In this document: positions 17,568 to 51,723 of the stretch, in pieces
Layout of the letters: each line of letters begins with the position of its first letter
Numbering within the stretch: position 1 is the stretch's first letter
NCBI GenBank assembly: GCA_024279865.1
Contig: JAJRRC010000109.1
Coordinates: 17,513 to 81,512 of the forward strand
Direction of reading: 5' to 3'
Length of the DNA: 64,000 nt
From: Planctomycetota bacterium
Lineage (GTDB): Bacteria; Planctomycetota; Phycisphaerae; Phycisphaerales; Phycisphaeraceae
Notes under the pieces: generated by a model
Told to the model about the DNA's origin: nothing
The model's database searches: none
The model's input: only the letters and a program-made list of their open reading frames with translations
Program-made: the position numbers and the translations under genes

Positions 17568-17972
17568 ATGAATCAATCCGCCAAAAATCATCATCCAATT
17601 AATATAAAAAACTGTTTTATCATTCTTCTGGCCTTGACGGCAGGGGAAGTGGCCTTGTTTGAAATCTGGTCACAAACAGCGTTTGTCCCCAAATATGTCA
17701 TGGTTCTAATGCTCCTGGTCTTGACACTTCCCAAGGCTGCAGTTGTCATGATCTACTTTATGCACTTAAAATTTGAGAAACAATTTGTGATCGCTTTAGC
17801 GATCTTCCCGATGATCCTGGTTTTCATTTGTGTCTTGCCAACCCTTTGGGATGCAGTTCGTTTGCATAACGTTGGAAAATCACAAAACCATGTCATCGGC
17901 CTCAAAGATTGGACTCCACCCAATGGACACAGCCACGCTCGAAAAACAGACGACCCCACAGTCAGCCACTGA
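17568..17972 (+). CDS. ctaF: cytochrome c oxidase subunit IV (prokaryotic caa3/aa3 type)
   Basis: Small three-TM protein immediately after ctaE. It has a hydrophilic C-terminal tail. Confidence 0.6.
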   Translation: MNQSAKNHHPINIKNCFIILLALTAGEVALFEIWSQTAFVPKYVMVLMLLVLTLPKAAVVMIYFMHLKFEKQFVIALAIFPMILVFICVLPTLWDAVRLHNVGKSQNHVIGLKDWTPPNGHSHARKTDDPTVSH

Positions 17973-18936
17973 AGCACTTCGCGTAACAGACCTGACGCAT
18001 CACTATCCCAAACGACGCGGGGAAAATGCGCCCCAAGCGGATCGGCCCGCACTGAAAAACCTATCCTTCACCGTCAACACCGGTGAAATCTTCGGCATCC
18101 TCGGACCCAACGGCGGAGGGAAAACCACCCTCTTCAAAATCATTGCCACCCTATTGCGACCCACCGAAGGAACCGTCACCGTCAGTGGACATGATGCCAT
18201 CAAAGACCCCAGACTCGTCCGCCAACATCTAGGCGTGGTCTTTCAGTCCCCAAGCCTAGACCTCAAACTCACCGCATCTGAAAACCTCATGCACCACGGC
18301 CATCTCTATGGCATCACCGGCAAAGACCTTCAAGATCGACAAGCCCACGCACTCGACCGCGTGGGCCTCACCGACCGAGCCCATGACTTTGTTGAAACCT
18401 TCAGTGGCGGCATGAGACGACGGGTCGAAATCGCCAAGGCCATGCTCCATCAACCCAGAGTCCTGCTCCTTGATGAACCAGACACCGGGCTGGACCCTTC
18501 TGCCAGGCGAGACCTGTGGCAACACCTCAAAACACTGCGAAATGATTTCGGCGTGACGGTCCTCATGACCACCCATCTGATGGAAGAAGCTCAGAAATGT
18601 GACCGCCTCGCCATCGTCAACAAAGGGCAACTTGTCGCATTGGATACCCCCGACAATCTCAAAAGCCATATCGGCGGCGACGTGATCACCATCCACACGA
18701 CCCACCCAAGCGAATTGGTCACTCAAATTGCAGAGCAATTCAAGATGCAGCCTGACAGTGATGAACTAAAAGTCCGCGAAGACCACATCCTTGTTGAACA
18801 TCCTGATGGGCCAGCTATGGTGGCTCAACTAGGCGCTCTTTTTGGAAAGGAAATCCAACGCATCACCGTCGGTCGCCCGACCCTTGAAGACGTTTTCGTT
18901 CACATGACAGGCGATACACTCAGCGATGCCAGCTAA
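17923..18936 (+). CDS. ABC transporter ATP-binding protein (ABC-2/CcmA-like); no permease adjacent
   Basis: Walker A GPNGGGKTT, signature FSGGMRRR and Walker B LLLDEPDTGLD. The start was chosen at ATG 17923, about 18 aa before the first conserved strand, and overlaps ctaF by about 50 nt. Confidence 0.8.
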   Translation: MDTATLEKQTTPQSATEALRVTDLTHHYPKRRGENAPQADRPALKNLSFTVNTGEIFGILGPNGGGKTTLFKIIATLLRPTEGTVTVSGHDAIKDPRLVRQHLGVVFQSPSLDLKLTASENLMHHGHLYGITGKDLQDRQAHALDRVGLTDRAHDFVETFSGGMRRRVEIAKAMLHQPRVLLLDEPDTGLDPSARRDLWQHLKTLRNDFGVTVLMTTHLMEEAQKCDRLAIVNKGQLVALDTPDNLKSHIGGDVITIHTTHPSELVTQIAEQFKMQPDSDELKVREDHILVEHPDGPAMVAQLGALFGKEIQRITVGRPTLEDVFVHMTGDTLSDAS

Positions 18937-19210: not shown

Positions 19211-19380
19211 CCTCAACCAAACCCCCAAGCCTGTTTCAACAGGTGCATCCCCAAGGCCACCTTGTTACCATAAAGACAATCAAGAACGTGAAGGTCCGCA
19301 TCATTTGAGCCCTCCGGTGATGTCGTTCCTTGTTGTACTTCATGTTCTTCCTCTTGATTTTCCTTCCACCCTTGGGGCTC

Positions 19381-21375
19381 ATGCCCATGACCACCACGCC
19401 GGTACAATCTGATTTGGCTCTTTGGACGACGCTTCGCACGCGTCGTCGTCATGTGGAGCAGTTGCGTGGGATTGACGCGATGGCGGGTCGTTGGATCACG
19501 CGGACGAAGCATTCGCGTAAGGGGATGTCTTTTCTCAATGAGCAGGCGGATCATGTTTTGGCTTTGGGGGATCAATGGAAAGATTACACTGAAGATCAGC
19601 TTGATGAACGGGTGATGGATATTCGTCAGATTTTTGCTCGCCGCGACTATACCGACGCGCATGTGGTGGTGGCGATGGCGGCCATTCGGGAAGTGGCTCG
19701 CCGAGAGCTTGGGGAATATCCGTACAAGGTTCAGGTCATGGGGGCGATGGGTTTGTTTCATGGCCAAATTGTGGAAATGGTCACCGGTGAGGGTAAGACG
19801 TTGACAGCCGCCTTGGGCGCGAGTTTGCTGGCGTGGCTACGACGGCCGATCCATGTGGTGACGGTGAATGATTATTTGGCTCAGCGTGATGCGGACACCC
19901 GCAAGCCGATTTATCGCCGTTGTGGGTTGGCAGCTCAGGGGATTGTCAGTGATACCCCGCCTGAGGAACGTCAATCGTTGTATCGTTTGCCGATTGTGTA
20001 TTTGACACAGAAGGAATTGGTCGCTGATTGGCTCAAGGATCAACTGAAGCTGGGTCGAATTGTGGACCCGGTTTCTGCACGTTGGCGTTCGTATGCCATG
20101 GCGGGCGGTTCAAAGGCTTCGCAGGGCGTGATGATCCCGGGCTTGTTTGTGGCCTTGGTGGATGAACTCGATGCGGTGTTGATTGACGAAGCGGTCACGC
20201 CGTTGATTATCGCTCAGGCCCGGGGTGCTGACAGTCAAGGCGAGTTGTACCTGCGTGCCCGTGAGTTAGCGATGCAGCTTGTCCCCAATGAGCACTTTGT
20301 GGTGGACTTGCGGAAGCGACGTGTGAAGCTGACTGAAGAAGGTCGCTATCAGGCAGAAGATTTGCTCGGCGAGCAGGATGATATTTTCAAACGTTCTCCC
20401 CGCCGACGTGAGGAGATGTTGGAGCAGGCGTTGGTGGCGGAGCATTGTTATTTGATTGGCGACCAGTATCAGGTAGTCGAAGACGAAATTGTGATTGTCG
20501 ATGAATACACGGGTCGCTTCATGGAAGACCGTCAGTGGCAACACGGGCTGCATCAGGCAGTCGAAGCCAAGCATGCTTTGGAAGTCACCGAAGACCGTGA
20601 CACACTGGCGAGCCTGAGTTTTCAGCGGTTTTTCAAGCAATACCCTCATCTTTGTGGCATGACAGGCACTGCCGCCGAGGCCATTGCCGAATTGGAAGCG
20701 ACTTATAGTTTGCCTGTCCGGGTGATTCCGACCAATCGGCCGATGCAACGAAAAATGTTACCTGATTTGATTTTCGCGCGTTCTGAAGATCGCTGGACTG
20801 CTGTCGCCCAAGAAGTGCGACAAATGCACCAGCAAGGACGGCCCGTCCTCATCGGAACCCGGTCCATTGAGTCCTCTGAACAACTCAGTGAACTACTCAC
20901 CAAGCAAGGACTCGAACATCAAATCCTCAATGCAGTCCACCATGAAGAAGAAGCTCCCATCGTCGCCAAGGCTGGGCAACTTGGCGCGATTACCGTCGCT
21001 ACGAATATGGCTGGACGCGGAACCGACATCAAGCTCGGCAAAGGTGTCACCGATATCGGTGGACTCCATGTGATCCTCACCGAACGCCACACCGCTCGAC
21101 GGGTCGACCGCCAACTCTACGGCCGCTCCGGTCGTCAGGGAGACCCAGGCTCCGCTCGCAATATTGTCAGCCTTGAAGATGAACTACTCATCAAATTTTC
21201 AGGCAAACTTTCAGCAGCCCTGCGAACGAGGTTTGCCGCCCGCCACACCCCGCTGCCAGCATGGACCAAAAGAGTCTTTGATCGGGCACAACGCAAAGCC
21301 CAAAACCAAGCCTTCAAAAGTCGAGCCCAAGTCCTTCGCCAAGATGAAGAACTCGACCGCACCTTGCCACGATAA
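19381..21375 (+). CDS. SecA-family ATPase paralogue, C-terminally truncated (~665 aa)
   Basis: MVTGEGKTLTAAL, VVTVNDYLAQRDA, LVDELDAVLIDEAVTPLII, TNMAGRGTDIKLG and RQLYGRSGRQGDPG are present. The protein ends after the first HSD helix. The start is uncertain (19330 TTG, 19381 or 19387 ATG). Confidence 0.8.
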   Translation: MPMTTTPVQSDLALWTTLRTRRRHVEQLRGIDAMAGRWITRTKHSRKGMSFLNEQADHVLALGDQWKDYTEDQLDERVMDIRQIFARRDYTDAHVVVAMAAIREVARRELGEYPYKVQVMGAMGLFHGQIVEMVTGEGKTLTAALGASLLAWLRRPIHVVTVNDYLAQRDADTRKPIYRRCGLAAQGIVSDTPPEERQSLYRLPIVYLTQKELVADWLKDQLKLGRIVDPVSARWRSYAMAGGSKASQGVMIPGLFVALVDELDAVLIDEAVTPLIIAQARGADSQGELYLRARELAMQLVPNEHFVVDLRKRRVKLTEEGRYQAEDLLGEQDDIFKRSPRRREEMLEQALVAEHCYLIGDQYQVVEDEIVIVDEYTGRFMEDRQWQHGLHQAVEAKHALEVTEDRDTLASLSFQRFFKQYPHLCGMTGTAAEAIAELEATYSLPVRVIPTNRPMQRKMLPDLIFARSEDRWTAVAQEVRQMHQQGRPVLIGTRSIESSEQLSELLTKQGLEHQILNAVHHEEEAPIVAKAGQLGAITVATNMAGRGTDIKLGKGVTDIGGLHVILTERHTARRVDRQLYGRSGRQGDPGSARNIVSLEDELLIKFSGKLSAALRTRFAARHTPLPAWTKRVFDRAQRKAQNQAFKSRAQVLRQDEELDRTLPR

Positions 21376-25605: not shown

Positions 25606-25667
25606 TACAAAATAATTGATTGACCTCACAAGAACCCCTGATCTTTTTTGCAAGAGCAACAGTACTT

Positions 25668-26525
25668 ATGGACTCGAAACACAGACACGAACTGGAACAG
25701 AACGACTTGGCAACCTTCATCGGCCATTTTGGCGAATGGTGGGCTAAATGGGGACATGTGACTTTGCTCTCCGTCTTGCTGGTGGTGGCAGCCTTTACCG
25801 CGGTACGTTTTTACAATGTGCGGGTTGATACCGCTCGTGAAACAGCATGGGGCGGCCTTGCCTCAAGCACCAGCCCTGAAGTCTACCGATCAGTGGCTCA
25901 GTCCAATGAAAACCCCGTGCGGGCTTTGGCCTATCTACGCGGTGCAGATTTGCTGTTGCAAAAAGCAGCTATTCCCGCACCCCCGGCACCCCCGGCACCC
26001 CCGGCACCCCCCAAACCCCAGGAAGTGACAGCCGAACCAGGCAAGACCGTCGATGCAACCGAGTCCACCTCCCAGGCCCAGCCAGCAACCCCAACCACAG
26101 ATACCGCTGATACAGCCGATGCTCCTGTCCAGGTTGCTTTGGCCGCTCAGAGAGAGCAGGACCCCGCGATCATGCTCGACGATGCTAAGTTGATGTACCA
26201 GGCAATCGTCGACGATAAAACGGCACCACAGATCATTCGACTCAATGCCAAACTTGGGCTTGGCGCTATTGCCGAGGCAAAAAAACAGTGGGATCAAGCT
26301 CACACCCTCTATCAGCAAGTTACTGATGAAGCGGGCGATGTCTATGTTCAGGTTGCCCTCAATGCCACGGATCGTCAAGCACGCATTGAACGCCTTAAAA
26401 CCCCGGTGCGTTTTGCCAAAGCTCCCGTGGCTCCCAAGGTGATTTTGCCTGACATGCCGATGGCAGAAATTGAAACCAAGTTGGACCTGTCCAACCCCCT
26501 CCCACAGCCCGCAGTTGCGCCATGA
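25668..26525 (+). CDS. membrane-anchored YfgM/TPR-like protein with a Pro-rich linker
   Basis: The N-terminus reads ELEQNDLATFIGHFGEWW followed by a TM helix (YfgM-like), and the C-terminus is TPR-like. The PAPPAPPAPPAPP linker is encoded by a 9-nt repeat. Confidence 0.55.
   Translation: MDSKHRHELEQNDLATFIGHFGEWWAKWGHVTLLSVLLVVAAFTAVRFYNVRVDTARETAWGGLASSTSPEVYRSVAQSNENPVRALAYLRGADLLLQKAAIPAPPAPPAPPAPPKPQEVTAEPGKTVDATESTSQAQPATPTTDTADTADAPVQVALAAQREQDPAIMLDDAKLMYQAIVDDKTAPQIIRLNAKLGLGAIAEAKKQWDQAHTLYQQVTDEAGDVYVQVALNATDRQARIERLKTPVRFAKAPVAPKVILPDMPMAEIETKLDLSNPLPQPAVAP
25977..26012 (+). repeat. in-frame 9-nt tandem repeat (GCACCCCCG)x4
   Basis: Read directly from the sequence. It encodes PAPPAPPAPPAP. 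Confidence 0.9.
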
Positions 26526-27901: not shown

Positions 27902-27932
27902 AAAATAGCTGCACACTCGAGTGTGCAGCATC
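27902..27932 (-). repeat. REP-like hairpin, copy R4 (compensated stem variant)
   Basis: aaaatagctgcacac-tcga-gtgtgcagc shares its flank and stem architecture with R5, but with paired substitutions in the stem. Confidence 0.55.
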
Positions 27933-27960
27933 AATCATTTCCATTTATGTTCGAATGAAT

Positions 27961-28000
27961 CGTTTAAAAATAGCCGCACGCTTACAGCGTGCGCGTCCGG
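27961..28000 (-). repeat. REP/terminator-like hairpin element, copy R5
   Basis: The minus strand reads ccggacgcgcacgc-tgtaa-gcgtgcggctatttttaaacg. It lies downstream of the minus-strand kinase operon. Confidence 0.85.
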
Positions 28001-29482: not shown

Positions 29483-29740
29483 TTAGGACGGAGCCCCCGA
29501 CACACTGGCAAAAGCAGTCTTGTTGGCCGTTAATGCAATGACCACAGGAGCGACATAAGCAGCTTTCTTGGCCATGCTACGCACAAACTGTCGCCGCGTT
29601 GCCGCGTTGTCCACCGGAAATTTCTCCCCCGCAAGACCCCCCGGCTCCCCCGGTTCCCCCGGTTCCCCCGAATCATCGGTTGGCCGTGGCTTGTGTGGTT
29701 TACGTGAAGGCGTGTTGGATTGATTCATAGCATTTTCCAT
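29483..29740 (-). CDS. small peptide (85 aa) with a twin-arginine-like motif; candidate substrate of the cassette
   Basis: The peptide contains TRRQFVR, the hydrophobic stretch AAYVAPVVIALTA and an AFA site, and then only SVSGAPS before the stop. It sits between the nucleotidyltransferase and PqqD genes on the same strand. Confidence 0.45.
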   Translation of the reverse strand: MENAMNQSNTPSRKPHKPRPTDDSGEPGEPGEPGGLAGEKFPVDNAATRRQFVRSMAKKAAYVAPVVIALTANKTAFASVSGAPS

Positions 29741-29794: not shown

Positions 29795-31165
29795 TTAGGC
29801 AGCTTTTTGTGAGATCAAAGTTGTTTGGCCCTGCTTTTTGAGTCCGGTAACGTCCGTTGAGCGTTCAAGATTCACGCAAATAGCCTCTTCAGAGCAGATT
29901 CGCTTGATGGCAATGAGCTGATAGCCGTCAAATCGGGCGTTGGGCCTGACGGAGGTGCTGACAAATCGCATCTTGCCTCGCATGGTAAATCGCTCGGTTT
30001 GGCCGTCGTTGTATTGGCGGGTGACCGAGAAGCGGCTGGAGCCGTCCCATGCTCGCACTGCATATTTGCCGATGGTTTGACCTGCGTGAATGGTGCGACG
30101 GGCAGTCAGACAGAGGCTCCCGTCTTCCTGACGCAGGACTTCGGTTTTGGATAAAAAGGCCCATAAAGGCTTGAAATATTTGGTGATTGGGCGGGTCAGG
30201 CGACACACATGGGCCGTCGGCAACCAACCCCAATGTTCATGGGCGTACCATTCACGCATGTGCTTCTGGTCTGGCACGGTTGCCGCGTAGAGATAGCCCA
30301 GTACAAAGCCGATGCCAGGCGTGGTTAACACATTGGCTAAAACATGGGCCAACGGATGCGCGTTGTCTCGCGGTGCTTGGCGAAGGCAAAGTCGGTCCCG
30401 CCAATTAACAGGGATTGTTTTGAGAGCCTCTCGCACTTGGGGAGGAATCAGTTGCTTGCCTTGGGCTGCTGCATCGAGTCCGCTCAGCACGGGCAAACTC
30501 AATCGCCACTGGCGGGCTAGTTGTAAGAACAAATCCCAGTTCATTTCACGGGAAAATTGCTTGGTCCAGCTTTGAATATCGTCACGCCATTTTTGACTGC
30601 TGTTGCCATGCACCGCCAGGTGGGCGGTGAGATGGATTAACATTCGCGCGGGTTCTGGAACCCAGACAAACGCATCATTCATAAAGACTTTTCGAGCATC
30701 GGTCCACAGTGCTTCGGTAGGCATGAATTGGGCATACCGCAAAGGACGCAGCGGCCGCACATGCACATCCATCACCACAGGCATCACATCGCCCACGGTG
30801 TATTCTGCTTCGTAATAAAACCGAGGAAAGAAATCTTCCCGCATCAAAATTTGGCTGCGATACCCACCCATCGATTCAATGATTTCAAACGCACGATCCA
30901 TGTCCGCTGGGCGAATCAGTAAATCTAGATCGCTCATCGAACGGGCCGCGGGATCGTCATAGGTGGTCAAGAGCAACGCTCCACCTTTGAGGAGCATCAG
31001 GTCAATCCCCGCCTCGTTGAATTGCAGAGCAAGCCGTCGCAGAAAGTGCATCATTCGCACATTGCGGGTCGCAACGCCAAGTCCCGCTCGGTCACTGGCC
31101 AAGGGCTTAGTAAGATGCGTAAGCGGTGTCGGCTCTTGAAGCATGTCAGATTCACAATGAGACAA
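29795..31165 (-). CDS. PF14907-type nucleotidyltransferase with a C-terminal degenerate SET-like domain
   Basis: The N-terminal half contains LLKGGALLLTTYDDPAARSMSDLDLLIRPADMDRAFEIIESMGGY (the uncharacterised nucleotidyltransferase family). The last ~100 aa (LTARRTIHAGQTIGKY ... RFVSTSVRPNARFDGYQLIAIKRICSEEAI) resemble a SET domain that lacks NHSC. An alternative start lies at 31144. Confidence 0.65.
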   Translation of the reverse strand: MSHCESDMLQEPTPLTHLTKPLASDRAGLGVATRNVRMMHFLRRLALQFNEAGIDLMLLKGGALLLTTYDDPAARSMSDLDLLIRPADMDRAFEIIESMGGYRSQILMREDFFPRFYYEAEYTVGDVMPVVMDVHVRPLRPLRYAQFMPTEALWTDARKVFMNDAFVWVPEPARMLIHLTAHLAVHGNSSQKWRDDIQSWTKQFSREMNWDLFLQLARQWRLSLPVLSGLDAAAQGKQLIPPQVREALKTIPVNWRDRLCLRQAPRDNAHPLAHVLANVLTTPGIGFVLGYLYAATVPDQKHMREWYAHEHWGWLPTAHVCRLTRPITKYFKPLWAFLSKTEVLRQEDGSLCLTARRTIHAGQTIGKYAVRAWDGSSRFSVTRQYNDGQTERFTMRGKMRFVSTSVRPNARFDGYQLIAIKRICSEEAICVNLERSTDVTGLKKQGQTTLISQKAA

Positions 31166-31641: not shown

Positions 31642-32940
31642 ATGTCTTTAACATCCACAGAATCAACTCTGGCAATTCTTGGCGGCTCACCAGCGGCCCC
31701 TCAGGATATCGTGAAACCCTGGCCTCCGATTGACGATACAGATCGCCAGATGGTGCTTGATTCACTCAACGGAACCAATCACGCCTTCGGCCCCAACTGC
31801 CAAGCCTTTTCAAAAGAAATGGCTGAGTGGAACGGTAACAAGCATGCCATCTTCACCAACAGTGGGACGGCAGCCTTGCACATGGGACTCGTCGGTTGTG
31901 GCGTGGGTGCGGGCGATCACGTGATCGTCACCGGCTACTCTTGGTCTTCAAGTGCAACCTGCATTATCCATCACAATGCCATCCCCATTTTTGTCGATAT
32001 TGACTTCGATACCATCAACATCGACGTAGACAAAATTGAAGCAGCCATCACCCCCAAAACCAAAGCCATCGTCGCGGTCCACTTGCATGGCCTGGCGATC
32101 AATATGGAAAAATTGATGGAAATAGCAAACAAACACAATCTCAAAGTGATTGAAGATGCTTGCCAAAGTCATGGTGCTGAATACAAAGGTAAAAAAGTTG
32201 GCACGATGGGTCACTGCGGTGCGTTGAGCTTTAACCAAAACAAAAGTCTTTGTGCGGGTGAAGGCGGGATGTTCCTGACCAATGATGAAGAAATTCTCGC
32301 AGGCGCTTCGAGCCTTTGGTCCTTCGGCGAAACTCGCACGCCTTCAGAAGACCGCGATTTCCATGCGTATGCATTGGGTTGGATGTACCGCGCGAACGAT
32401 CTGACGGCCGCCTTCGGCCGAGCACAGCTCAAAAAGCTCACTGGCTACATTGAAACCGAACGTTCAAATGCAGATGCGTTGCGTGCCGTACTTGAAGGTA
32501 CACATGGCCTGATCATGCCGACGGAGCCTGAAAACCATTTACATACTTATTACAACTTTAGTATTCGTATTGATATGGACGCGATTGGCTGGACGGGTGA
32601 GCCCACGCGTATGCGAGACGCATTGCTTAAAGCAATGGCCGCTGAAGGTGCTCACCCTGTTGTTTGGCAGCGATTTATTTTGCCTAGCATGACGGTGTTT
32701 CAAGCGAAGAACGCTTATGGCAAGGGCAGTCCTTGGGCTGAGCATGATGCGTTGGATGTGGATTATAACCCTGCGAATTTTCCTGTGTCCCAGCATCACT
32801 CTGATACGCACTTTGCGATCATTATGCCGTTGCGTGCCCCCAATGGTCCTGAAGTTGCTCAGGTGATGGGCCAAGGCATCCGCAAGGTTTTTGAGAATAT
32901 TGAGAAAATTGATCCCGACCAGATTCTCGACGAAAAATAA
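31642..32940 (+). CDS. DegT/DnrJ/EryC1/StrS-family PLP aminotransferase
   Basis: 432 aa with the typical family layout (FTNSGTAALHMGL ... SFNQNKSLCAGEGG containing the PLP Lys). Confidence 0.85.
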   Translation: MSLTSTESTLAILGGSPAAPQDIVKPWPPIDDTDRQMVLDSLNGTNHAFGPNCQAFSKEMAEWNGNKHAIFTNSGTAALHMGLVGCGVGAGDHVIVTGYSWSSSATCIIHHNAIPIFVDIDFDTINIDVDKIEAAITPKTKAIVAVHLHGLAINMEKLMEIANKHNLKVIEDACQSHGAEYKGKKVGTMGHCGALSFNQNKSLCAGEGGMFLTNDEEILAGASSLWSFGETRTPSEDRDFHAYALGWMYRANDLTAAFGRAQLKKLTGYIETERSNADALRAVLEGTHGLIMPTEPENHLHTYYNFSIRIDMDAIGWTGEPTRMRDALLKAMAAEGAHPVVWQRFILPSMTVFQAKNAYGKGSPWAEHDALDVDYNPANFPVSQHHSDTHFAIIMPLRAPNGPEVAQVMGQGIRKVFENIEKIDPDQILDEK

Positions 32941-49674: not shown

Positions 49675-51723
49675 ATGGCTCCGATGCCAATACGTAAACT
49701 CCCCTTACTTTTAATCAACCAGATCGCGGCGGGCGAAGTGATTGAACGGCCAGCCAGTGTCGTCAAAGAACTCGTTGAAAACAGTCTCGATGCCCATGGG
49801 ACCCAAATCGATATCCAAATCGAAGAAGGCGGCCGTCAACTGATCCGAATCAGCGACAACGGCACAGGCATTCCCGAAGACGAACTCCCCCTCGCCATCG
49901 ACGCTCATGCCACCAGCAAATTGCAAACCGTTGACCAGCTCGAAGCGATCAATACCATGGGCTTTCGCGGCGAAGCGATTGCGTCCATCGCCAGCATCAG
50001 CCGTTTACGTATCACCAGCAAAGCAACGCTCAACGGCATTGCCTGTGAATCCGGGGCCATGCTCGAAGTTCATGGCGGACAGATACAACCCATCACCCCC
50101 GCAGCCTGTGCGCCGGGGACCACGCTTGAAGTCCGCGACATCTTTTTTAACACCCCTGCAAGGCTTAAATTCATGCGGGCTGCCAGTACCGAGTTTGGGC
50201 ATATTTCCAGCATCATCAGCCAAATCGCAATGGTTCAACCTCAAGTTGGATTCACCTTGACCCACAACGGCCGCAAGACGCTGGATGTGAGCCCTGATAG
50301 TTCACACCGAAGGCGATGTATTCAATTGCTAGGTAAAGAGCTTGATGATGCCATGCTCGAGTTTGAGCATGTCGACCCACCCACCGAAAACGCGTCGCCG
50401 AATAGCCCCCCACCTCCGAGGTTGTGGGGTTTGGCGGGCATGCCTGCGGTCGCTCGCGCGACGACAAAATTTCAGTATGTCTTTATCAATGGCAGGCCCA
50501 TCAAAGACCGCAGTCTCAACCATGCGATCAAAGAAGCTTACCGCGGCCTCATCCCTCATGACAAACATCCCATGGCCATTCTCTGTATCGAAATCGACCC
50601 CACCACCGTGGACGTCAATGTCCATCCCACCAAATCACAAGTCCGCTTTCGTGAACCTTCACGCATGCATGGGCTAATCCTCCATTCACTGCGACAATGT
50701 TTACTTGCCAATGACCTCACCCCCCAGGCAAGCTTGGGAGGATTTAACAGAGCCGGAGCGATGACCGGCGGAGGCATTGCCGGGAGTGGAACTTCCGGGG
50801 GGGCCGGGAAAATTTCCTTCTCACGGTCGGGGGGGTCGTCAAGTTCATCGGGAACAAGCCCTTCTGCTTTTGTACAACATTTTCGGGAAATGGATGCCGC
50901 TCAAAAAGGCTTCATCTACCAACAGATCAAAGAAGCCCTCCCCCCGGTTCCCCCGGCCCCCCCGGAAGCTACCCAAGGGCTTCTCCCACAAAATGCAGCC
51001 CAGACCACCGACCCAAGCAACCCGGAGGCCTCCAACGGACCACCCTCTGAACTTCCGGGGGGGCCGGGGGCATGGGAATTGGCACAGCGAAATTCTCCAG
51101 GCGGCGCGCCGGCTCTGCCGATCCTTCAGCAATACAATATTTTGCAAGTGCACAATAGCTATCTCGTTACCCAAGACGACCAAGGGATTCTCATCATCGA
51201 CTAACATGCTCTGCATGAACGGGTCATGTTTGAACAACTCAGAAATCGCATCCTGGGCCAAAACAAAAACCTTGAAAGCCAGCGTCTGTTAATGCCTGCG
51301 ACGATGCCTGCTTCGCCTGGTCGTCTGGACCTTGCTGAGCAACTGGGTCCTCTCTTTGAGCGCATTGGGATTGAAGCTCAGCCCATTGGCAAAGAGAGCT
51401 TGGCGATTCATGCGTTCCCCACGTTGTTGTTTGACCGCAAGGTAGACCCGATTACCTTCATGGAAGAGCTTCTTGATGAAGCTGAAGATGGCAAGGTGGA
51501 TCTGACCAATCCGAATCTTGACGAAGCGGTGCTTCACAAGGTTCTGGACATGATGGCCTGCAAGGCAGCGGTCAAAGGCGGCGATGCCATGACCCAGGCG
51601 GAGCTTGCAGCCCTGCTCGCCAAGCGAGATGAGATTGAACGGTCGAGCAATTGCCCCCACGGCCGGCCCACGAGCCTGAGGTTGAGCCTTGCGGATCTTG
51701 AAAAGCAATTCATGCGAACGTAA
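49675..51723 (+). pseudogene. mutL: DNA mismatch repair endonuclease MutL interrupted by an in-frame TAA at 51202-51204
   Basis: The N-terminal GHKL ATPase is present (INQIAAGEVIERPASVVKELVENSLDA). The two ORFs 49675-51204 and 51226-51723 are in the same frame. The stop replaces Q in ILIID-*-HALHERVMFE (the DQHAX2EX4E motif). CPHGRP is retained downstream. Confidence 0.85.

Follow-up and report, generated by a model that had tools for sequence, protein, structure and literature searches.

Within a 64,000-nucleotide stretch of a contig from a Planctomycetota bacterium (JAJRRC010000109.1 of assembly GCA_024279865.1, positions 17,513 to 81,512; hereafter the window), a small open reading frame (ORF) on the minus strand had been read in a first-pass annotation, made from the sequence alone, as a possible precursor of a peptide that is made on the ribosome and modified after translation (RiPP). 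The ORF is one of four tightly packed minus-strand genes, which encode, in this order, an NTP_transf_5 nucleotidyltransferase, the small peptide, a PqqD-family RiPP recognition element (RRE), and an HprK-related kinase A (Table 1). On balance, we lean toward the view that the ORF supplies the precursor in a self-contained cassette of four genes for a linear, serine-modified ribosomal peptide, which would be exported by a general pathway and cut at an AxA site.

The best NCBIfam match of the PqqD protein is lasso_PqqD_Strm, and its closest solved structures are the lasso B1 proteins TbiB1 (E-value = 4.8e-7) and TfuB1. In the kinase, residues G135, K136, and T138 are invariant among 36 homologs, and the likeness to solved HPr kinases is confined to the P-loop region. 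The nucleotidyltransferase keeps a G-G...D-L-D motif (read from the sequence), and its ORF extends to a TTG codon at position 31165 in the ORF listing.

Table 1. Coordinates of the cassette genes and of the features within the putative precursor.
Feature	Position	Strand	Remarks
Precursor peptide gene	29483..29740	-	85 amino acids (aa) from ATG at 29740; homologous ORFs and purifying selection
Variable polar N-terminal region, residues 1-47	29600..29740	-	Length and sequence not conserved among homologs
9-bp tandem repeat CCCCCGGTT, 3.7 copies	29638..29670	.	Encodes GEPGEPGEPGG; inside the variable N-terminal region
Conserved leader, residues T48-A78, TRRQFVRSMAKKAAYVAPVVIALTANKTAFA	29507..29599	-	Hidden Markov model (HMM) matches in 70 loci; twin arginines (RR) and proline invariant
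Twin-arginine motif TRRQFVR, residues 48-54	29579..29599	-	R49 and R50 invariant in 56 homologs
YVAPVV, residues 62-67	29540..29557	-	[Y/W/F]xxPx[L/V/I] RRE-binding motif within AAYVAPVVIALTA
AFA, residues 76-78	29507..29515	-	Signal-peptidase-type AxA site; leader/core boundary
Putative core SVSGAPS, residues 79-85	29486..29506	-	Candidate phosphorylation sites S79, S81, and C-terminal S85
PqqD-family RRE, 107 aa	29110..29433	-	PF05402, 53.8 bits; 4-bp overlap of its stop codon with the kinase start
HprK-related kinase A, 304 aa	28199..29113	-	TIGR04352, 201.9 bits (cut-off 200); P-loop GSGSGKST intact
NTP_transf_5 nucleotidyltransferase, 449 aa as annotated	29795..31144	-	PF14907, 116.4 bits
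Two terminator-like hairpins 3' of the kinase gene	27908..27993	-	Consensus scan only

The small ORF is a conserved gene

Translation of the minus strand reproduces exactly the 85-aa sequence given in the first-pass annotation, with TRRQFVR, AFA, and SVSGAPS followed by the stop codon. In the public annotation of the same contig (GCA_024275395.1, JAJRZF010000205), the gene (P0001) begins with an ATG at position 29728 and encodes 81 aa. The true start is probably this ATG rather than the one at 29740, because the N-termini of homologs (MNQNQ.. and MDQK..) agree with the public annotation. Another start that had been suggested, at the internal MAKKAAY, is ruled out by the invariant RR region, which is under purifying selection and lies upstream of it.

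A single-sequence search with the peptide retrieved the peptide itself as the sole match, and phmmer yielded about eight genuine small relatives among 1.84 billion representatives. Pfam and NCBIfam gave no match to the peptide, including none to a precursor model of the HPr-rel-A system. Because the direct search had returned the peptide alone, we approached the family through its genomic context. Homologs of the kinase are abundant in Phycisphaerae and other Planctomycetota, and at all four kinase-homolog loci that we looked up, an ORF of 63-76 aa lies between the transferase and PqqD genes, its C-terminal half clearly homologous to the window peptide. A first scan of a genome collection with the kinase as a single sequence found no match, and a kinase profile scan of a one-genome-per-species collection found 119 kinase matches, from which 80 further loci were kept; nearly all of them are titled Planctomycetota, and none is assigned to another phylum.

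Among 87 related loci, 70 have a homologous small ORF on the same strand as the kinase, as detected with an HMM built from the conserved leader. The homologs in databases are all annotated as 'hypothetical protein'. A relaxed regular-expression search of the 18 loci without an HMM match (a number that counts the window itself as a source) found no credible divergent peptide; at least three of these loci (L022, L025, and L052) end just upstream of the kinase.

Selection acts on the encoded protein. Across 33 conserved codons, diverged close relatives differ by 11.5-16 synonymous versus 1-3.5 non-synonymous changes (a ratio of non-synonymous to synonymous divergence, pN/pS, of 0.02-0.09), and comparisons of the window with its relatives give a pN/pS of 0.19-0.43. 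The first-pass annotation had named two grounds on which the ORF should be dropped, namely its absence or disruption in relatives and a lack of codon-level conservation, and neither was observed. The lack of a Pfam or NCBIfam match and the low-complexity N-terminal half with its tandem repeat are what one might see in a chance reading frame within an intergenic spacer, but this explanation is already refuted by the recurrence of the ORF across the loci and by the low pN/pS values. The small ORF is a real, conserved coding gene.

The N-terminal region tolerates much change: at some loci its position is occupied by a fused PqqD domain or kinase. The GEPGEPGEPGG tract that had been described in this region is present, encoded by a 9-bp tandem repeat, and has no counterpart in close homologs of 63-66 aa. 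The tract is a lineage-specific expansion or insertion within the variable region. Repeats of the same 9-bp type (CCCCCGGNN) occur elsewhere in the window at 25980-26004, 50941-50965, and 51055-51070 (with a chance expectation of 0), and the copy at 25980-26004 lies within an ORF (25620-26525), where it encodes PAPPAPPAPP. The repeat is compatible with the triplet code and seems, from these occurrences, to expand within coding regions of the source genome.

The precursor gene is linked and sometimes fused to the neighboring enzyme genes

The kinase, PqqD, and NTP transferase genes were found in 72-84 of the 84 related loci, and the linkage of the peptide to them persists through at least four gene orders: NT-PEP-PqqD-Kin, PEP-PqqD-Kin-NT, NT-PEP-X-PqqD-Kin, and PqqD-Kin-PEP (NT, transferase; PEP, precursor; Kin, kinase). 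At some loci, the precursor has become part of one of these proteins. Specifically, PqqD and precursor form a single ORF at L030:1660-2334 and L036:1601-2494 and in the database proteins P0152 and P0159, whereas kinase and precursor do so at L044:3689-5128, L045:3169-4272, L047:3887-5146, and L066:3908-5113. No stop codon separates the fused parts, and more than 100 residues precede the RR motif, which is thus internal.

We scanned the window ORFs from about 14.9 to 45.7 kb for partner enzymes and found no Asn-synthase-like cyclase, transglutaminase-like (B2) peptidase, S24/S26 peptidase, or adjacent ABC exporter; the only ABC ATPase in this part (17830-18936) is 9 kb away on the opposite strand. 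Likewise, the conserved gene clusters of the 84 related loci contain no cyclase, B2, S24/S26 peptidase, or exporter. Beyond the three enzymes, the only same-strand families that recur in at least 19 of the 84 loci are GT2 and GT4 glycosyltransferases (a VKOR-DsbA fusion, discussed below, was detected through a separate profile search and not through this count).

The leader carries a putative docking motif at a near-constant distance from the core

Only three columns are invariant in an alignment of 56 non-redundant homologs: both positions of the arginine pair and the proline within [Y/F]xxP. In the window peptide, TRRQFVR is followed by SMAKK and then by a 13-residue uncharged hydrophobic stretch, AAYVAPVVIALTA, which measures 13-14 residues across the family. 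The spacing between RR and the aromatic residue is 12-13 residues in 65 of 67 sequences. The best AxA-type site lies 16 (44 sequences) or 17 (15 sequences) residues after the aromatic residue, which accounts for 59 of the 67 homologs. We infer cleavage at AFA in the window peptide; counted from the AFA/S boundary, positions -17, -14, and -12 are occupied by Tyr, Pro, and Val, respectively.

The element [Y/W]xxPx[L/V/I/A/F] is bound by the discrete recognition elements of lasso peptide systems and by LppB of the Linear Polyphosphorylated Peptides (LPP) of Bacillota (Popov et al. 2026, Nat Commun, PMC13381572). The Tyr of LPP and lasso leaders sits at -16 or -17, with the position that is modified or cleaved about 17 residues downstream; more precisely, the lasso geometry is Y-17 and P-14, and the LPP geometry is Y-16, P-13, and pSer+3 (PMC13381572). 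The leaders of the window family show this type of motif at the same distance to the boundary as those of lasso and LPP precursors.

The recognition element appears to vary together with the leader. The column in helix 3 of PqqD that aligns to an Asp of TbiB1 holds Asp at 31 of the 46 loci whose leader has Tyr, compared with 0 of the 18 whose leader has Phe, and a neighboring column holds Gln in one leader set and Arg in the other (shared ancestry being ignored in both comparisons). The TbiB1-Asp column is situated four residues before the pocket-dividing hydrophobic residue, as D70 is before F74 in LppB. This covariation, the PqqD-precursor fusions, and the kinase-precursor fusions all point to a physical interaction.

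These features also bear on whether the peptide could be an ordinary small exported peptide, similar to the Phr signaling peptides of Bacillus, in an enzyme neighborhood without functional meaning. The shape of the precursor is signal-peptide-like, and Phr-type precursors provide a precedent for the release of short peptides from signal-bearing precursors. Yet the linkage to the enzymes survives changes of gene order and fusions, the invariant [Y/F]xxP is a motif of recognition elements and not a feature of signal peptides, and a residue of the recognition element covaries with the leader aromatic. We consider an ordinary exported peptide very unlikely.

One leader precedes two classes of core

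The homologs fall into two classes that differ in what follows the leader. The short class, to which the window peptide belongs, comprises 32 non-redundant full-length sequences (the window included) with tails of 5-13 aa that are rich in S, G, A, P, T, and V. The last residue is Ser in 22 of 28 distinct short-class tails, compared to 27.6 per cent Ser at other positions (binomial P-value = 3e-8, with relatedness ignored). The Cys class comprises 34 non-redundant sequences that have the same leader and cores of 28-72 residues with 6 or 12 Cys in a C-C-CC-C-C pattern (examples are L020 [1810-2253], L027, L028, L031, L035, L041, L042, and L053). These cores match Pfam models of conotoxins and inhibitor cystine knots weakly, and it is possible on this basis that they are bacterial knottins.

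Several observations concern the Cys class on its own. L041 carries two Cys-class precursor genes in tandem. Four metagenomic sequences (P0122, P0124, P0130, and P0138) are longer precursors of 180-202 aa with a doubled Cys-rich core, and they have an additional upstream segment, K-[LI]-[AP]-F-V-P-P-V, that lacks RR and is situated about 60 residues before the regular leader; this segment may be a second docking motif. Genes of the GT2 and GT4 glycosyltransferase families lie downstream of the cassette on the same strand in 15 and 13 Cys-class loci, respectively, and in 0 of 33 short-class loci (for example, L068:6353-7468 and L068:7359-8861; the arrangement is seen at about 20 loci of the PEP-PqqD-Kin-NT type). 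The presence of these neighbors hints at glycosylation of the product.

The leader as a probable export signal

An indication of export comes from the Cys class. A gene in which VKOR (PF07884) is fused to DsbA (PF01323) lies between the precursor and PqqD genes in 23 of 33 Cys-class loci versus 0 of 33 short-class loci (for example, at L020:2257-3603 and L035:2121-3608). Dedicated disulfide oxidases of the VKOR/DsbA type act outside the cytoplasm. The Cys-class cores are therefore expected to cross the membrane, and the shared leader is very likely a working export signal in the Cys class. By homology, the leader of the short class is probably an export signal too. The suggestion of the first-pass annotation that the leader actually uses an export signal, rather than mimicking one, gains indirect support from this distribution.

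Two export pathways come into consideration. The first-pass annotation called TRRQFVR a near-consensus motif of the twin-arginine translocation (Tat) pathway, and this description holds in part. TRRQFVR satisfies the S/T-R-R-x-F-L-K motif, the RR is invariant in the 56 homologs and is found in an S/T-R-R-x-F/V context, and the c-region often has a basic residue. A cargo that is modified in the cytoplasm would also suit Tat. On the other side, neither of the Tat signal models TIGR01409 and PF10518 matches the window peptide at E-value <= 10; only 4 of 56 relatives match TIGR01409, and weakly so (best E-value = 0.32), and none matches PF10518. Moreover, the five residues SMAKK, two of them Lys, intervene between the RR motif and the hydrophobic stretch, and RR is far from the N-terminus (residues 49-50, or 45-46 from the annotated start). 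Taken alone, the segment KK-AAYVAPVVIALTA-NKTAFA looks like a Sec signal, and the fixed spacing between RR and the aromatic residue could equally mean that RR is part of an enzyme-recognition surface. We place export by Tat a little short of an even chance.

Under one alternative, the leader would function in recognition only: RR, the hydrophobic stretch, and AxA would be used for binding or processing, and the peptide would remain in the cytoplasm or depend on a peptidase or transporter encoded elsewhere. Such a role is compatible with the failure of the Tat HMMs and with the fixed spacing of 12-13 residues, which suits a structural recognition element better than a generic signal, and the hydrophobic segment is exactly the part that is expected to lie as a beta-strand on the recognition element. 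Fusions at six loci place the peptide behind a cytoplasmic domain, either PqqD or kinase, and LPP leaders are cut by an RRE-dependent peptidase and not during export (PMC13381572). However, it is hard to explain without export why knottin-like cores with 6 Cys follow the same leader in the company of a membrane VKOR and a periplasmic-type DsbA. In addition, AxA is found at signal-peptidase distance after the hydrophobic stretch in most members, and no conserved peptidase or exporter is encoded near any of the 84 loci. We therefore regard a recognition-only leader as unlikely, while giving it some weight.

The leader could instead be an uncleaved signal anchor with its N-terminus inside and its tail outside, displaying a phospho-modified Ser-rich tail as, for example, a glycan primer or attachment point. 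A released product of 7 residues would be unusually small, the long polar N-terminal region tolerates fusion to cytoplasmic domains, and the AlphaFold2 model described below shows the leader as one long helix. The GT2 and GT4 glycosyltransferases of related Cys-class clusters fit this idea, as does the location of Bacillota LPP clusters in polysaccharide loci (PMC13381572). Nevertheless, the retention of AxA at the right distance suggests cleavage, the hydrophobic stretch, at 13-14 residues, is short to form a transmembrane helix that is stable, and in the short class, including the window, no glycosyltransferase is found nearby (0 of 33 loci). An anchored peptide is thus quite improbable, and export followed by cleavage at AxA remains our preferred reading.

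Comparison with known peptide systems

The closest known system is that of the LPPs. In both systems, the PqqD-type recognition element is a discrete protein that accompanies an HprK-like kinase and an uncharacterized NTP transferase, and a macrolactam cyclase is lacking. The N-terminal part of either precursor is conserved while the C-terminus varies. The two also share YxxPxV, whose Tyr precedes the cleavage site by 16-17 residues, and a serine at one of the first three positions of the core. A linear product and signal-peptidase-type removal of the leader are common to both as well, although they are proposed in the case of the window. In LPPs, LppK polyphosphorylates Ser3 of the core (PMC13381572).

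The differences are nonetheless considerable. LPP clusters carry a SipW-like signal peptidase I (LppS) and an MsbA-like exporter (LppD), neither of which was found at the window locus or the 84 related loci. From the LPP leader motif, YxxPxVLxHQxIxFETxxS, the window peptide shares only the YxxPxV part, whereas the invariant RR, the hydrophobic stretch, and AxA, which together resemble a general export signal, belong to the planctomycetal leader only. The window core has 7 aa, in contrast to 45 aa in the studied LPP, and the window kinase is of the TIGR04352 type. Finally, LPPs are stated to be restricted to Bacillota (PMC13381572), and the window family occurs in Planctomycetota. The RiPP reading of the first-pass annotation stands, although its closest precedents, the phosphorylated lasso peptides and the LPP family, were not named there.

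Phosphorylated and phosphoglycosylated lasso peptides (paeninodin, the proteobacterial polyphosphorylated peptides, and pseudomycoidin) share with the window a B1-type element, a [Y/W]xxPxL leader, a kinase, an NTP_transf_5 enzyme, and a peptide that ends in Ser. In lasso clusters, the C-terminal Ser of the linear precursor receives phosphate, often more than once, from HprK-like kinases, and in pseudomycoidin one or two hexoses are attached to the phosphate by the NTP_transf_5 enzyme (PMC8498205). One may ask, then, whether the window peptide is itself a lasso precursor, with the cyclase and B2 peptidase encoded elsewhere in the genome: YxxPxV is at -17/-14/-12, lasso B1 proteins are the closest counterparts of the PqqD protein, and a kinase and a transferase are known lasso tailoring enzymes (PMC8498205). 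However, neither a cyclase nor a B2 gene is present in the scanned part of the window or conserved in the 84 loci, and the leader is signal-peptide-like. Lasso cores have at least about 13 residues, with Asp or Glu at 7-9 for ring closure and Thr at -2 of the leader. SVSGAPS is too short and contains no acidic residue, and position -2 is Phe. A lasso precursor is accordingly highly improbable.

Two further comparisons concern the leader. Like a Tat signal, it has T-R-R-x-F-V-R, a moderate hydrophobic stretch, a basic c-region residue (ANK), and AxA; unlike one, it has a very long n-region and no folded passenger, and the hydrophobic stretch of the family contains the conserved [Y/F]xxP, which generic signals lack. 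Bufferins are RiPPs with Sec signal peptides that are dispensable for modification (PMC11626156). They resemble the window family in the lack of a dedicated exporter, the Cys-rich nature of some cores, and, as proposed for the window family, the use of a general export pathway and the cut by signal peptidase. In contrast to bufferins, the signal-like region of the window peptide holds the presumed RRE docking motif, and the enzymes are unrelated (MNIO and DUF2063 in bufferins versus a kinase and a nucleotidyltransferase here). A precursor of PQQ was also considered for the small peptide and rejected.

Neither the planctomycetal cassette nor its precursor turned out to be described in the literature that could be searched (including searches for twin-arginine RiPPs and for RiPP kinases of Planctomycetes), and the literature on the HprK-related kinase and PF14907 contained nothing useful for this cassette. 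The planctomycetal precursor is an undescribed cousin or variant of the phosphorylated peptides of Bacillota.

A proposed pathway

The RiPP-precursor reading draws its support from the linkage to PqqD, kinase, and NTP_transf_5 genes, from the docking motif at lasso/LPP distance, and from the natural fusions. Beyond the reality of the gene, its linkage, and the geometry of its motifs, all readings are inferential, with 64 kb of the source genome as the sequence basis. By analogy with lasso B1 proteins and LppB, the cytoplasmic PqqD protein would bind YVAPVV in the leader and thereby present the segment about 17 residues downstream to the kinase. The kinase, as its counterparts in these systems do, would then use ATP to phosphorylate a serine of SVSGAPS, possibly several times. 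The target could be S79 or S81 near the boundary, corresponding to Ser3 of LPPs, or the C-terminal S85, corresponding to the modified residue of paeninodin; S85 is favored for the short class because C-terminal Ser is enriched in it. The nucleotidyltransferase may subsequently add a nucleotide-derived or sugar group to the phosphate, as PsmN does in pseudomycoidin.

Because no dedicated peptidase or exporter was found and the leader has the n-h-c shape of a signal peptide with AxA, we propose that the modified peptide would leave the cell by a general pathway and that housekeeping signal peptidase I would cut after AFA, freeing a modified heptapeptide. The invariant RR suggests Tat as the route, and KK with the hydrophobic stretch would also suit Sec.

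In addition to the evidence against a Tat signal given above, several observations weigh against this scheme. No Cys-class core ends in Ser, and for this reason the C-terminal Ser cannot be a universal target of the kinase. The window PqqD protein carries His, and not Asp, at the column aligned to the Tyr-binding Asp, and its TIGR04353 score is 33.3 against a cut-off of 35, so that in the HPr-rel-A system (TIGR04352 plus TIGR04353) the kinase passes the cut-off and the PqqD protein falls just below it. In an AlphaFold2 model of the natural fusion P0152, the leader is a free helix of low confidence (predicted local distance difference test [pLDDT] of 54-62) that is not docked, whereas the recognition element (pLDDT 83-96) and the Cys-rich domain (pLDDT 83-86) are both well folded; as modeled, P0152 neither favors nor disfavors docking of the leader. 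Lastly, the LPP transferase was inactive in a heterologous host (PMC13381572), and the chemistry of the transferase is therefore uncertain even in the best-studied relative.

A more specific version of the scheme, which we regard as rather unlikely, assigns the 31-residue leader two roles at once, as a true Tat signal and as the strand on which PqqD docks. PqqD would then resemble a Tat-proofreading chaperone. Masking of the signal would end once a phosphate-linked sugar or nucleotide had been assembled on the serine tail by the kinase and the nucleotidyltransferase. Export would follow through Tat, which tolerates bulky cargo, and signal peptidase would free a 7-residue phospho-modified peptide with a possible role as a diffusible signal or as a small peptidyl-phospho-conjugate. 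In the sister class, phospho-glycosylated bacterial knottins would leave the cell in this way too.

RiPP clusters normally encode their own leader peptidase and exporter, and this cassette, present in at least 80 species genomes of Planctomycetota, has neither. It seems instead to place the docking motif of a recognition element within a general export signal. If this is true, phosphorylated-peptide chemistry would extend from Bacillota to another phylum, and the cassette would be a first case in which a signal-peptide-like leader also recruits enzymes. It would also supply a mining rule for precursors, namely RR, 12-13 residues, [Y/F]xxP, 16-17 residues, and AxA. In the sister class, the signs are of bacterial knottin-like peptides accompanied by glycosyltransferases and by a disulfide oxidase of their own. 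Owing to its small size, the heptapeptide core of the window peptide lends itself to direct synthesis and mass-spectrometric testing.

Neighboring genes and minor features

The operon probably ends at the two hairpins that follow the kinase gene. A weak terminator-like hairpin of 5 bp with a T-rich run (29485-29497, minus strand) covers the last codons and the stop codon of the precursor gene. Reduced read-through into the enzyme genes is a possible effect, but the hairpin does not exceed chance matches in strength.

The C-terminal 132 aa of the nucleotidyltransferase (29795-30200, minus strand) match the SET domain weakly (15.3 bits, against a cut-off of 22.4), and the SET-like domain of the window protein is degenerate (STSVRPNARF...ICVNLE). 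The canonical NHSCxPN and ITIDYG motifs are present in this extension in 8 of 27 Cys-class relatives, canonical NHSCxPN being confined to that class, and the extension is apparently missing from the inspected transferases of PEP-PqqD-Kin-NT loci (an unquantified observation).

Other ORFs in the scanned part of the window are unrelated to the cassette; among their products are a DegT aminotransferase, sulfatases, xylose-isomerase-like proteins, RluD, a SecA-like protein, and cytochrome oxidase components. The aminotransferase, a sugar aminotransferase of the DegT/DnrJ/EryC1 type (31642-32940, plus strand), is divergent from the cassette. At L002 and L005, a nucleotide-sugar epimerase/dehydratase gene and a TatD-family gene lie upstream in its stead, and no sugar gene is thus consistently linked to the cassette. 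The SecA-like ORF (19330-21375, plus strand; 681 aa) contains SecA DEAD, preprotein cross-linking, and P-loop domains, and canonical SecA is longer than this protein.

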